A stretch of DNA of 64,000 nucleotides from a virus. The stretch is taken from IMG/VR virus record IMGVR_UViG_3300042465_009257, positions 32,001 to 96,000 of that record, one strand, 5' to 3'. The notes under the pieces were generated by a model. That model ran no database searches and was not told where the DNA came from. It saw only the letters and a list, made by a program, of their open reading frames with translations. The position numbers were made by a program, and so were the translations under genes. Shown piece after piece: positions 1,933 to 13,153 of this stretch (within the stretch, counting starts at the first letter, position 1; every line of letters begins with the position of its first letter).

Positions 1933-2334
1933 TTAAAATTTAAAACTATGCTCCAAATTTTGCTTCTGGCGGGCGATAATTTCTGGCGGGACATTATGAA
2001 CATCCTTATGGCCCATGTCCTCTAGGGCTATCGAGAACGCCATAAAACCACATTCCTTAGCTCGATTCAAATATTTTTTCCGCTCGGCGGCAGTAGTCGA
2101 AGTATTAGCTACCAAACAATCAGATCCATCTGCCAAAGCTTTCTCAAATTTGTCCCAGCAAAATTTATGAGCTTGGCTCAGTTTGGCGGCATCAAACTTA
2201 TATTCTCCATCGATCATAAAGAAATCGTCAGCACAACAAATTCTTACTTTCGGGTCGAGACCTTGAATGAAAGCCGCCAAACTGGATTTCCCCGTGCCAC
2301 TTTTTCCAGAAATAATGATTACTGTCTTTTGCAT
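1933..2334 (-). CDS. P-loop polynucleotide-kinase-like protein (AAA_33 / N4BP2-like)
   Basis: GKSGTGKS Walker A, ADDFF..GEYKFD, AH, NT, HNVP motifs. Confidence 0.8.
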   Translation of the reverse strand: MQKTVIIISGKSGTGKSSLAAFIQGLDPKVRICCADDFFMIDGEYKFDAAKLSQAHKFCWDKFEKALADGSDCLVANTSTTAAERKKYLNRAKECGFMAFSIALEDMGHKDVHNVPPEIIARQKQNLEHSFKF

Positions 2335-3722: not shown

Positions 3723-5042
3723 TTAGGCGCATTCTTCCAATTCTGCCGTATCGTCCGATTCAATGTCAACCTCACCTTTATCCAAAAGCTCTGTCTCTTT
3801 AACAAGAAAGCGAAATGCCTTGAGCTTGAACGCCTTAAGCGCCTTCGTCTCATTCCTCAAGCAAATACCTTCAGCAGGAACTCCAGTATTGCATTCCTTG
3901 CAAATTTGCTCCAAATTGAAAGAAGTCTTTAAATTTTTAAGAAACTCCTCATGCCAATGAGCCTCAAGATGGAGATTAGGAAATAAATCCTTGGCCAAAC
4001 CTTGGTAAAAAATAGGAACATGCTGCAACTTATTATCCCGACAAAACTGAATAACCTCCCGCATTGAATATTCTGTCACCTCATTTGTTGGAGACGTATG
4101 AGTTACCCGATAAACTACCACCTTGAATTCTCCTAGCTTACATCCATAAGTCCATTTGCCTTGGATTTTGCTTCCAGACGGCGTATAGCCTACGATTTCT
4201 GCGTAGATTTGAATGCCATCTGTCAGAGCATGTTCAATCGTTTTAAATCCATCGCGCCATACGTCCTCCTTGTAATAATGATCGCTTTGCGGGAGGAGAG
4301 ATTTAATCACCGTGCGGCTGGCATATACGTTTTCGTATTGGGCTAATGGAACATTTAATCCGCAGAAATTCTTAATTTTTTCCCACAAAGATAAATTCCG
4401 CTTCAATAAAACACGGCCACAATTCAGGCTCGTTCCATGAAATTTATCAGAGATTACAATATAATCATCAGGATCAATCAAATGAATATTATCGGCCAGC
4501 TTAGAGGTATCATAATGCAAATGATATTGCCCTTCAATGAGGCGGCTGGGAAGTTTCCTCACTTTTTTACCTGCAACTCCATTGACCTGCTTTTCGCGAA
4601 TAAGATATTTCCGGCATAATTCCTCGCCATCAATGGTATCAAAAGCCTGATTATCAGCTATATTATCCCATTCGGCAATTTTAATTCCGCGCCAAACTTC
4701 GAAATACTCTAAGGGGCAAAACAAGCCCTCGCTTGGGACTTTCATGAATTTAATACATCGAACCCGGCGCTTGTCTCCAAAATATCCCTTTTTAGTCTGA
4801 TCCGCATTCAACATTTGATCAGAATAGAGATTGTTTTTGGCCGCGAAACTACCAGACAGTTGACTTTCCACTGGGAAAAATACACCCCTATCGCCAACTT
4901 TAGACTCTTTTGAAACAATAACAAGATTTCCATTGATAACCGCGTGCTGAATACTATTCGCACCTGGAATTTCATGCAACGTTTTTAAAGTAACGTAATG
5001 AGCCGCGTAATTTTCGCTATTTTCAATAGTGAGTTTATTCAT
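3723..5042 (-). CDS. RNA ligase (Rnl2/DRB0094-like) with N-terminal OB domain
   Basis: motif I KFHGTS, EIVG, EGICLR, KLK nucleotidyltransferase motifs. Confidence 0.85.
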   Translation of the reverse strand: MNKLTIENSENYAAHYVTLKTLHEIPGANSIQHAVINGNLVIVSKESKVGDRGVFFPVESQLSGSFAAKNNLYSDQMLNADQTKKGYFGDKRRVRCIKFMKVPSEGLFCPLEYFEVWRGIKIAEWDNIADNQAFDTIDGEELCRKYLIREKQVNGVAGKKVRKLPSRLIEGQYHLHYDTSKLADNIHLIDPDDYIVISDKFHGTSLNCGRVLLKRNLSLWEKIKNFCGLNVPLAQYENVYASRTVIKSLLPQSDHYYKEDVWRDGFKTIEHALTDGIQIYAEIVGYTPSGSKIQGKWTYGCKLGEFKVVVYRVTHTSPTNEVTEYSMREVIQFCRDNKLQHVPIFYQGLAKDLFPNLHLEAHWHEEFLKNLKTSFNLEQICKECNTGVPAEGICLRNETKALKAFKLKAFRFLVKETELLDKGEVDIESDDTAELEECA

Positions 5043-11477: not shown

Positions 11478-11795
11478 TTAAAATTCTAAATCAATATTTT
11501 TAATCGCATAAGACATCTCCTCTTTTAACTCTTCAATAAGATCTTTTCTCATTTGTTTTCTATCCGCTTTGCTGATAAGTTGACCAGCAAGAAAGGCATC
11601 GTGCATAGCACTTTCTGAGTAGTATGTTTCTGGCCCCAGAATAATATGTTTGTGTCCTTGTTCTTTCATCAATCTGCCCACATAGTAGGTCATGTGGACA
11701 TCATCTTGAGTCTTCTTATATTTAGCAAGAGGATTGCCATAAGTTTTTAGCAAACGGGTTTCGAGATTTTTGATTATTTCAAGTACATCGCTCAT
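11478..11795 (-). CDS. hypothetical protein
   Basis: ORF track; upstream promoter-like sequence. Confidence 0.6.
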   Translation of the reverse strand: MSDVLEIIKNLETRLLKTYGNPLAKYKKTQDDVHMTYYVGRLMKEQGHKHIILGPETYYSESAMHDAFLAGQLISKADRKQMRKDLIEELKEEMSYAIKNIDLEF

Positions 11796-11854
11796 ACTAT
11801 GAATATACCACGCTCTCAGAAAAACGCAAATTATTTTTTGCGAAAATTGATTGT

Positions 11855-11936
11855 CGTAACGGACGGGAATTGAACCCGCTACCTCTCGCGTGCGATCCTC
11901 GCTACGCCAGCGCTCTCACCGCCGAGCTACCGTTAC
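11855..11936 (-). ncRNA. tRNA-like RNA with elongated, non-canonical anticodon arm
   Basis: 7-bp acceptor GTAACGG/CCGTTAC, D-stem GCTC/GAGC, T-arm GCGGG-TTCAATT-CCCGT, 26-nt anticodon arm; no encoded CCA. Confidence 0.75.
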
Positions 11937-11982
11937 TACAAGCCTTTTAATGACTTACTCAGGTCACTTGCTAGAACAGCAA

Positions 11983-12606
11983 TTATTCAACTAGAGCGCA
12001 AGCTAATCCGCCCTTATTCATTAATTTTGCTAAATCTTTCATTGTCACATAACCGTTTCCGTTGATTCCAAAATCTTTACCCCAACTATTTCTTAGCCAA
12101 ATTCTATCTTTCAGTCCATCGTATCTAAATCCTAAAATCGCGTGAAATCCAATTGGATTACCATTGCATAAAATTCTCCCATCCTTCTCTGTTTTATTCA
12201 TTCTTTCGTACCAAGGTATCGTCATTACAATTGGACTAATTGTATTTAGGTAAAGAGCTACTTGATCTGCATCATTTGTCCAATAATCTTTTTTTACAAT
12301 ATTTTTACTAATTAAGTAATCTACTGCATAGTTTAATTGAGACCCTTCAACATCGTCTGGTGTTTTACCTAATTTCCTCGCCGCTTTATAAATTTCTAGA
12401 GGTTTGCATGGGTTTTGGGAAATTGGTTCTGCTGCTAAAAGGCCCCTTAAGCAATAATCAACACAAGTGCCATTAGGCCCCTGATCTGTGACTTCCCCAA
12501 GTTGATAATTCCGAAAAATTGTTTCTTTCTTTGCCCCCATTGTTAATGGGAATCCCAATTTAGAATCGGGGAGGGAAAATGGAATTGAGCCTAGTTGTTT
12601 TGACAT
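11983..12606 (-). CDS. papain-like (C1) cysteine peptidase
   Basis: DQGPNGTC, HAI, RNSWG..FG.NG motifs; start moved to MSKQL. Confidence 0.85.
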   Translation of the reverse strand: MSKQLGSIPFSLPDSKLGFPLTMGAKKETIFRNYQLGEVTDQGPNGTCVDYCLRGLLAAEPISQNPCKPLEIYKAARKLGKTPDDVEGSQLNYAVDYLISKNIVKKDYWTNDADQVALYLNTISPIVMTIPWYERMNKTEKDGRILCNGNPIGFHAILGFRYDGLKDRIWLRNSWGKDFGINGNGYVTMKDLAKLMNKGGLACALVE

Positions 12607-12607
12607 A

Positions 12608-13153
12608 TTATGGCGTAGAAATAAACTCAATCAACTCTTCTTTTGTCTCGAAAACCTGATTTGCATAAAAACGAATATTTCTTTCATCCGTTACAAAATA
12701 ATAAAAGGTTGTTTCAATTTCACCTTCTTGAGCATAAAAATTATTAATAAATTCGCATAGTTCAACTTCGGCCTGCTTTGCTTTGCCTTCCATGAGAACC
12801 CATACTTTATCACCTTTTTTAAATTTCGGTTCAAGGGTCAACCCTTCTTCCCATTTTAATGCCCGACTCAAGGCCAAATTTCGCCCAGCTTTTTTATTGT
12901 AAGCATCAACTTTTGAACAAACAGATTCTCCGCGTAATTCGTTTCCATCTGGATCGCGTAATTCAATAACTACTTTGCCTCCTCTCGGACTTGGATCTAG
13001 GAAATATGAACCATTTCCACCTTTAAGTTTTTTATCAAGATGCAGAATTAATTCTTGATTATCATTTGGGAAAAAGCGATAATGAGAGCATCGGACTTTC
13101 CACCCTTGATCGCGAAGCTCTTTAACGGTTGGCATTTTAACAATTGTTTTCAT
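12608..13153 (-). CDS. hypothetical two-domain phage protein
   Basis: ORF with TTGACA-N16-TATAAT promoter 7 nt upstream. Confidence 0.65.
   Translation of the reverse strand: MKTIVKMPTVKELRDQGWKVRCSHYRFFPNDNQELILHLDKKLKGGNGSYFLDPSPRGGKVVIELRDPDGNELRGESVCSKVDAYNKKAGRNLALSRALKWEEGLTLEPKFKKGDKVWVLMEGKAKQAEVELCEFINNFYAQEGEIETTFYYFVTDERNIRFYANQVFETKEELIEFISTP

Follow-up and report, generated by a model that had tools for sequence, protein, structure and literature searches.

A tRNA-like gene with no usable anticodon loop in a large tailed phage, a candidate non-decoding tRNA mimic

Several tRNA-like RNAs that do not decode are already known, namely, the tRNA-like domain of tmRNA, the YrlA RNA, mascRNA, and the viral tRNA-like RNAs (vtRNAs) of herpesviruses. 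For tRNA genes in phages, the usual explanations are codon supply and the replacement of host tRNAs that anticodon nucleases have cut. Here we describe an 82-nucleotide (nt) tRNA-like gene that fits neither explanation and points to a non-decoding use of the tRNA shape, in which the molecule would be a decoy, a cofactor or a handle for processing. The gene lies on the minus strand of a 64,000-nt stretch of viral DNA (hereafter, the window), which covers positions 32001-96000 of the IMG/VR virus record IMGVR_UViG_3300042465_009257. Candidate viral tRNA-like structures have been catalogued in bulk (PMC10690425), and the tRNA region of phage T4 encodes two small non-tRNA RNAs of unexplained role, RNAC and RNAD (PMC3014915).

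A cloverleaf without a decoding loop

The element and the parts of it that matter most for the argument are the following (contig L116, introduced below, carries an orthologous gene):

11855-11936, minus strand: the tRNA-like gene, 82 nt, with an Rfam tRNA match, a cloverleaf as its minimum free energy (MFE) fold, and an ortholog that differs by compensatory changes
11885-11910, minus strand: the anticodon arm, 26 nt, with 10 pairs, one bulged A, one G.G mismatch and a GGA triloop, and no 7-nt loop (RNAfold; -12.1 kcal/mol for the arm alone)
11891-11900, minus strand: a 10-nt lineage-specific insertion, GAGGATCGCA, relative to the 17-nt arm of L116 (MAFFT alignment A3; boundaries ambiguous by a few bases)
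11863-11879, minus strand: the T arm, GCGGG-TTCAATT-CCCGT, in which pairs 49:65 and 50:64 have changed on both sides relative to L116 and are still paired

The element aligns end to end with the Rfam tRNA family RF00005 (minus strand, model positions 1-71), with a score of 43.3 bits against a gathering score of 29 and an E-value of 2.2e-7 in a 2-kb region or 7.2e-6 in the whole window; it is the only match to this family in the entire 173,358-bp genome. The anticodon stem-loop forms a 22-nt unaligned block in this alignment, where the model expects 13 nt. The molecule consists of a 7-bp acceptor stem, a D arm with a 4-bp stem, the 26-nt anticodon arm, a 5-nt variable loop, the T arm and a discriminator G, and its MFE structure in RNAfold is the cloverleaf (-35.8 kcal/mol, z = -2.8; 2 of 200 shuffled sequences fold as well). 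A first-pass annotation made from the sequence alone had given the same minus-strand sequence and partition into arms, and on re-reading both proved exact. Its description of an RNA in the shape of a tRNA, with the elbow intact but lacking a usable anticodon loop, is borne out by the Rfam match, the cloverleaf fold and the triloop arm, and RNAfold reproduces the hairpin of about 10 bp with a GGA loop that it had drawn for the 26-nt anticodon arm. ARAGORN at default settings, which it had named as a check, calls no gene at the element. Because standard tRNA finders miss such genes, they may be under-counted.

Examined as a decoder, the element fails: its anticodon arm does not have a 7-nt loop on a 5-bp stem, and neither U33 nor a purine at position 37 is present. 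The nucleotides of the tertiary core give a mixed picture. U8, G18G19, the UUC of the T loop, and A58 are in place, but the window copy departs from tRNAs at position 14, which is G where tRNAs have A, and at 15:48, which is G/A; CCA is not encoded, the 3' end reading G-ACA. The G+C content of the element is 63%, compared with about 37% for the genome. Looked for as a repeated or mobile motif, the hairpin or its insertion is present in a single copy in the genome.

An ortholog in a second phage lineage

The gene downstream of the element encodes a 105-amino-acid (aa) protein with 91 homologs, and one of the contigs that carry them, L116 (73% identity in that protein), contains a tRNA-like gene at 1278-1350. 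The two genes are embedded in the same cassette. The L116 leader, TGACCTGAGCAAGTCGTTAAAAAGCTT (L116:1249-1275), is the same as that of the window, with equal spacing between its hairpin and the 5' end of the tRNA-like gene, and the trailer, CCAATCAATTTT, is likewise the same. This cassette lies in different gene neighborhoods in the window and in L116. The L116 gene scores 42.6 bits in Rfam, with the anticodon region again unaligned, whereas a genuine tRNA-Met located 12 nt downstream scores 65.6 bits. Against the mascRNA model, the L116 gene gives a weak match that is below threshold (21.8 bits).

The acceptor stems have six of the seven pairs in common (GGAACGG/CCGTTCC in L116, GTAACGG/CCGTTAC in the window). 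In a MAFFT alignment of the window and L116 copies (A3), 98.8% of the stem cells are paired, compared with 31-59% in slid registers, and 6 of 500 shuffles match the A3 pairing values. Three pairs have changed on both sides between the window and L116, 2:71 (UA/GC), 49:65 (GU/CG) and 50:64 (CG/UA), and no pair of the acceptor or T stem is broken. Judging from this alignment, compensatory change has preserved the pairing of the acceptor and T stems since the two lineages split, which neutral decay does not do.

The anticodon arms tell a different part of the history. The arm of L116 is 17 nt long (GUAGU-GGUAUCC-UCGAC), with G at 33, C at 37 and no U33; its stem has two mismatches and forms no stable fold by itself. 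In the MAFFT alignment, the window arm is an arm of the L116 type plus the 10-nt insertion, and the inferred common loop is GGUA(G/U)CC. Given that this loop, with G33 and C37, is common to both orthologs, it was apparently unfit for decoding before the lineages split. As far as the comparison of the two copies goes, the long hairpin is recent, confined to the lineage of the window, and without a sign of selection. L116 has A14, G15-C48 and CCA where the window has G14, G15/A48 and ACA, and the discriminator, which is G in the window and A in L116, differs between these orthologs as does the 2:71 pair.

Variation among strains

Seventeen contigs with 97.4-100% identity to the window span the site, 16 with the whole element and one (L019) that ends inside it. 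Among the 1,934 aligned bases, 96 sites segregate (5.0%). One single-nucleotide polymorphism (SNP) falls inside the 82-nt element, a C5 to U change that turns C5-G68 into a U5.G68 wobble and thus keeps the pair. In addition, a 1-nt G indel segregates in the 5' strand of the anticodon arm. In the form with the extra G, the arm weakens from -12.1 to -9.3 kcal/mol, and the cloverleaf then lies 3.2 kcal/mol above the MFE. This haplotype agrees with L116 at the indel site, so that the window haplotype probably carries a 1-nt deletion. The first-pass annotation had held that the maintained pairing argues against simple decay. The conclusion stands for the element, which with its three compensated pairs and the odd loop shared with L116 is not a case of simple decay, but the pairing of the extension cannot be taken as a sign of selection because the 10-nt insertion is absent from L116 and the 1-nt indel weakens the arm.

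Genome and gene neighborhood

The source record is a 173,358-bp IMG/VR virus genome (CheckV completeness 100%) of the large tailed phage type, with DnaE, DnaB, ribonucleotide reductase, an RNA ligase, GIY-YIG and LAGLIDADG genes, and a large glycosylation locus. No close cultured relative of this phage was found, and the 900-bp region around the element has no match among GenBank phages by direct DNA similarity. Near-identical contigs are present in many metagenome assemblies, apparently of freshwater-lake origin to judge from sample names such as KRAE22 and BUCK21. The features around the element, in their minus-strand order, are:

11983-12630, minus strand: papain-like peptidase gene, with its stop codon 46 nt upstream of the element
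11968-11982, minus strand: small hairpin TTGCT-GTTCT-AGCAA, read from the sequence, directly after the peptidase stop codon
11940-11966, minus strand: 27-nt 5' leader motif TGACCTGAGTAAGTCATTAAAAGGCTT, a single copy in the genome, kept in L116 and elsewhere
11855-11936, minus strand: the tRNA-like gene
11843-11854, minus strand: 12-nt 3' trailer ACAATCAATTTT, kept in L116, where it runs into the normal tRNA-Met
11820-11842, minus strand: intrinsic-terminator-like hairpin CGCAAA-AAATAA-TTTGCG followed by TTTTT, 12 nt past the 3' end of the element
11802-11810, minus strand: extended -10-like sequence TGGTATATT, about 6 nt before the start of the 105-aa gene
11478-11795, minus strand: 105-aa gene, downstream of the terminator

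In 1.3 kb, one terminator-like site was seen, compared with 0.7 expected from shuffles, and no good sigma-70-type promoter was found between the peptidase gene and the element. The mRNA of the 105-aa gene may be nearly leaderless because its start follows the extended -10-like sequence so closely. The 105-aa product belongs to a family without an assigned function, with 21 invariant residues and members on phage contigs of up to about 200 kb. A search of the genome yielded no CCA-adding enzyme, no Ro60/TROVE protein, no tyrosine integrase (PF00589), and no serine recombinase (PF00239).

The RNA ligase (PF09414 with a PHA02142 OB-fold domain) is encoded at 3723-5042 on the minus strand, near a 133-aa AAA_33 P-loop kinase (1933-2334, minus strand). 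The two could form a tRNA or RNA repair kit, with which their presence fits, although it shows no splicing. In relatives, the ligase is paired with NADAR and metallophosphatase genes (L005). Elsewhere in the window, the DUF2815 RNA motif matches positions 12801-12853 on the minus strand below its threshold (27.1 bits, with 41.2 required; E = 0.02), and the match ends at a start codon inside or before the 181-aa gene.

Relatives and searches for further copies

The contigs that carry homologs of the peptidase at 58-74% identity (L002-L009) have no tRNA-like gene at the syntenic site, and a covariance model built from the element (R1) detects no remnant there. Ordinary tRNAs occur near these peptidase homologs, tRNA-Glu in L002 and eight tRNAs in L008, and more distant relatives with the 105-aa protein have 4 to 20 tRNAs, often near homologous genes. 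With relatives that rich in tRNAs and none in this genome besides the element, the phage appears to have lost all its other tRNA genes. Synteny searches through the 105-aa homologs (L117-L135) and through homologs of a 92-aa protein of L116 (L226-L230) placed the element in L116 only. Comparison with the tRNAs of related phages showed none that is close, and when the flanking peptidase, the 105-aa protein and DnaE were each used singly for locus searches of IMG/VR, no relatives came up.

Pattern scans of IMG/VR that combined the T arm with the acceptor, the D arm with the T loop, and the acceptor with the T arm were all empty, those of JGI metagenomes recovered only the phage's own species and unrelated tRNAs, and in 185,579 species genomes the exact D arm with a degenerate T loop found no matching tRNA. 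The by-catch of the D-arm scan (metagenome contigs L026, L030-L032, L034, L036, L038, L039) consists of UAU-anticodon tRNAs with the loop CUUAUAC/A and variable regions of 9 nt or longer.

Class-I tRNA bodies in which 7-12 additional bases separate the D arm from the T arm were found at 76 loci in a generic scan of IMG/VR, and most of these loci are tRNA-Tyr(GUA) genes whose 12-nt intron occupies the canonical site. Each of the five insert-carrying records that were tested encodes several giant-virus capsid genes; these tRNA-Tyr inserts are a matter of ordinary eukaryote-type splicing and not a phage precedent.

Other tRNA-like genes with odd anticodon arms were seen as well. Five IMG/VR loci (L042, L097, L064, L065 and L100) have one acceptor stem (AATCAGG), D arm and T arm, combined with two unrelated 26-nt anticodon arms, either a 7-bp stem with a 12-nt loop or a long hairpin with a 4-nt loop. 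Four more (L041, L086, L088 and L113) contain a GNRA-capped hairpin in the anticodon region (GGGG-GAAA-CCCC; GGCCC-GAAA-GGGCC), and in one of these four a CUA (amber-reading) loop is split by a 12-nt insert. In a Lactococcus petauri contig, a copy of the leader motif described in the next section is followed, 420 nt further on, by an 81-nt tRNA-like gene (L177:817-897; Rfam 44.1 bits) whose anticodon arm has a stem of 8 bp and a loop of 12 nt.

A widespread motif in the 5' leader

The leader consists of a 4-bp hairpin with a conserved loop, CUGAGUAA, followed by UUAAAA-GGCUU; counted from the 5' end of the tRNA-like gene, the last base of the hairpin stem lies 14 nt upstream and the GUC core 15 nt. 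Collected copies give a 26-nt consensus, N-GAC-CUGAGYAA-GUC-N'-UUAAA-(CUGCUC or AGGCUY), after which a U-rich run and then a gene often follow. Most positions were fixed by the search pattern, and therefore the alignment understates the variation of the motif. The same motif precedes tRNA genes in the tRNA clusters of giant viruses (L056, L059 and others), with the same 15-nt spacing, and is found also at L068, L071, L136-L138 and L139-L195. Among GenBank phages, it occurs in those of Lactobacillus, Staphylococcus, Anoxybacillus, E. coli and Cylindrospermopsis, in intergenic positions; a copy in an E. coli phage is 125 nt upstream of a tRNA-Arg. The T1-like coliphage JulesPiccard and the family of the Lactobacillus prophage Lj771 are among the carriers. 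In bacterial and archaeal assemblies, the motif is present in 57 stretches, compared with about 9 expected by chance under an assumption of uniform base composition; among these 57, the copies in L154 and L180 are CRISPR spacers, and that in L145 lies between CRISPR repeats. Overall, it ranges across phages of Firmicutes, Proteobacteria and Cyanobacteria, archaea-binned contigs, and giant viruses of eukaryotes. If true, this range would imply that the motif engages a universal machine, be it RNase P, the ribosome or another tRNA-handling enzyme.

The closing pair N:N' covaries (CG 19, UG 16, AU 8, UA 8, GC 5, unpaired 14), and the many U.G pairs point to an RNA read from this strand. There is a weak hint of pairing between the loop GAGYA and the downstream UGCUC. 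In the Cylindrospermopsis raciborskii virus RM-2018a (L136, 76587-77530), three copies occupy, one each, the gaps between consecutive small genes, a layout that looks like an intergenic processing or termination signal. Rfam has no family for the motif; what comes closest is GP20-b, which matches below threshold in prophage Lj771 (20.5 bits, with 36.2 required), and a literature search on the motif sequence returned nothing specific. We also considered the leader as a sigma-70 promoter, a pistol or hammerhead ribozyme, a preQ1-I riboswitch, a boxA/boxB nut site, a piece of tracrRNA, and a mimic of the 16S rRNA 3' region, and none fits all copies. Should the leader prove functional as an RNA, it would serve widely as a marker and add a new element of regulation or processing. 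The more ambitious proposal, that the leader and the anticodon-less tRNA-like gene jointly make up an undescribed viral RNA module, in which a new structured class is combined with a decoy or cofactor against host immunity directed at the acceptor end, strikes us as rather improbable.

A candidate tRNA mimic and its rivals

We tentatively prefer, as a possible reading, that the element encodes a tRNA mimic that does not decode, would be matured by the tRNA enzymes of the host, and would act in trans through its acceptor/T/elbow half as a decoy or cofactor. The top half (acceptor stem, T arm, D/T elbow) is probably under structural selection, with the anticodon arm free to drift. The acceptor/T minihelix and the D/T elbow are the parts recognized by RNase P, 3' processing enzymes and the CCA-adding enzyme, for all of which the anticodon arm is dispensable; the kept parts being those that tRNA-maturing enzymes read, the product would be a mature, CCA-tailed, non-decoding RNA. 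Transcription would include the conserved 5' leader, from the upstream operon or from a start of its own, and would end at the terminator 12 nt downstream. Host RNase P would then cut the 5' end, host exonucleases would trim the 3' end, and a host enzyme would add CCA, the host enzyme being needed because the phage encodes none. The resulting L-shaped, CCA-tailed RNA, unable to pair with a codon, may serve as a tRNA look-alike for a factor that reads the acceptor/T/elbow half rather than the anticodon. One candidate partner is a host tRNA-directed toxin or immunity enzyme acting at the CCA end, for which the RNA would serve as a decoy or sponge; the other is a protein, of the phage or the host, with a tRNA as its cofactor. 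The anticodon arm would have drifted meanwhile, the 10-nt insertion producing the long closed hairpin in this phage. The differences between the orthologs in the discriminator and in the 2:71 pair speak against one conserved synthetase identity and hence, we infer, against a role as an aminoacyl donor; a partner that reads shape would fit these differences better than a single synthetase.

Apart from the compensated pairs, this proposal draws on the full-length and sole Rfam match, the MFE cloverleaf, the kept leader and trailer, the high G+C content, the pair-keeping SNP and the terminator-like hairpin. Several points weigh against it. The covariation comes from one comparison of two lineages, and these two are the only lineages known, all other relatives examined being without the element. 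Purifying selection is not significant in the underpowered sample of 17 strain contigs, with 1 SNP and 1 indel per 82 nt compared with 5 SNPs per 105 nt of flanking intergenic DNA, a difference that nevertheless points toward constraint. The window copy, unlike L116, has G14, G15/A48, ACA for CCA, and the insertion, departures that could reflect relaxed constraint in this lineage. Expression, processing, action in trans and the identity of the partner are steps that we infer.

The main rival, which we consider unlikely although less so than the other alternatives, is a decaying relic, that is, a family that once worked and whose window copy now drifts neutrally in a phage stripped of its tRNA genes. 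The contrast with the 4-20 tRNAs of related phages fits such a history, as do the G.G mismatch and the departures of the window copy just listed, against A14, G15-C48 and CCA in L116, the indel that weakens the anticodon arm, and a SNP density not significantly below that of the flanks. Speaking against neutral drift, the acceptor and T stems have three compensated pairs and none broken since the lineages of the window and L116 separated, 63% G+C is kept in an AT-rich genome, and the leader, trailer and terminator are intact; the single SNP keeps pairing, the element is present in all spanning strain contigs (complete in 16 of 17 and up to the contig end in L019), and the aberrant loop is common with L116, so that loss of decoding did not start the decay. 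Selection on the top half alone could also stem from a role in cis, as tRNA punctuation, in which the element would be the RNase P and 3'-end processing site where the peptidase-operon mRNA acquires its 3' end, and the RNA set free would have no function. Conservation confined to the top half is what a substrate of RNase P, RNase Z and the CCA-adding enzyme needs, the element sits 46 nt past the upstream stop codon and 12 nt before the terminator with no good sigma-70-type promoter in front of it, and mascRNA at the 3' end of MALAT1 and the tRNA-like units of gammaherpesvirus 68 are precedents, the former echoed in the sub-threshold L116 match of 21.8 bits. But the tRNA-Met 12 nt downstream in L116 could punctuate on its own and the tRNA-like gene is kept beside it, so that pure punctuation seems insufficient to explain retention, and both copies have a complete D arm and G18G19/T-loop elbow, which is beyond a minimal RNase P substrate. 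We regard punctuation as quite improbable.

The remaining alternatives fare worse. The first-pass annotation had listed a micro-insertion processed by the phage ligase, and the most explicit form of that idea is an intron-bearing tRNA-Ala(CGC) whose exons are healed and sealed by the RNA ligase (3723-5042, minus strand) and the nearby P-loop kinase. ARAGORN with the -i option does call tRNA-Ala(cgc) i(34,9), removing 9 nt, AGCGAGGAT, after position 33 to leave the loop GUCGCAC with U33 and A37; the phage has the ligase (PF09414) and the 133-aa AAA_33 kinase, GCG makes up 20% of its Ala codons, and short anticodon-loop inserts are common among IMG/VR viral tRNA genes. Most of these viral examples, however, are giant-virus tRNA-Tyr genes with eukaryote-type introns and not phage genes. 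Moreover, the element has A3-U70 instead of the alanine determinant G3.U70 and the discriminator G73 instead of A73; the junctions, a 1-nt bulge and a site within a helix, form no bulge-helix-bulge; and the haplotype with the extra G would yield an 8-nt loop. The insert-free L116 still has GGUAUCC, and an excision placed elsewhere by homology leaves GGUAGCC or GUAGCC. Group I introns in tRNA genes are self-splicing, about 200 nt or longer, with a P1-P9 core, for which a 9-10-nt insert is far too short, and no intron family appeared in the Rfam scans; protein-dependent tRNA splicing is not known from bacteria. We consider the intron very improbable, and the processed micro-insertion unlikely altogether in view of the missing bulge-helix-bulge and of an insertion-free ortholog that also lacks a canonical loop. 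Even less credence goes to a DNA-level element, whether a recombination hotspot or an attP core that stems from the tRNA gene of a host. Integration commonly targets tRNA genes, and the cassette does lie in different neighborhoods in the window and L116, but the genome has no tyrosine integrase (PF00589) or serine recombinase (PF00239), the D-arm/T-loop pattern is unmatched in the 185,579 species genomes (the 3'-half pattern was scanned in viral contigs only), and the compensatory changes indicate selection at the RNA level, against an attP. Two known RNAs were rejected as identities of the element: tmRNA, which the tmRNA mode of ARAGORN does not find in the genome and from which the 82-nt element differs by A3-U70 and the absence of a tag reading frame, and YrlA/Y RNA, with no RF02553 match at E <= 10 in the region and no TROVE domain in the genome.

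Comparison with known systems

In the searchable literature, we found no phage gene that combines a cloverleaf top half under selection with a free, closed anticodon arm, the combination that the preferred reading, a non-decoding tRNA mimic, would assign to this element. Short inserts in the region of the anticodon loop also occur in the tRNA-Tyr(GUA) genes of giant viruses and archaea, which carry a 12-nt intron after position 37 and some of which, in giant viruses, stand behind the same leader. The inserts at 37/38 in those genes leave a perfect CUGUAGA loop, whereas no homology-consistent excision from the element gives a canonical loop.

The element resembles canonical phage elongator tRNAs in its 7-bp acceptor stem, 4-bp D stem, G18G19, T loop UUCAAUU and 5-nt variable loop, and also in its location, a region where relatives carry tRNA genes, with a normal tRNA-Met in the L116 cassette itself. 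It differs from them in the 26-nt anticodon arm (17 nt and non-canonical in L116), in the absence of a 7-nt loop, U33 and a purine at 37, in G14, and in the missing CCA. RNAC and RNAD of T4, small non-tRNA RNAs within a phage tRNA transcription unit, can be likened to it by description and not by sequence; those RNAs are longer. The closest parallels among tRNA-like RNAs that act as processing signals or mimics are mascRNA, the vtRNAs of gammaherpesvirus 68, the tRNA-like domain of tmRNA, and the tRNA-like module of bacterial and phage YrlA, all of which, like this element, keep the top half of the tRNA without decoding and would be expected to be processed by RNase P and the CCA-adding enzyme. 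A review of such RNAs is Katz et al. 2016 (PMC5003029), as cited in PMC10690425. Among these, mascRNA and the vtRNAs are eukaryotic, unlike the phage element; tmRNA has a tag reading frame and G3.U70, neither of which is present here; and the ends of the element close an acceptor stem instead of the Ro-binding stem of YrlA.

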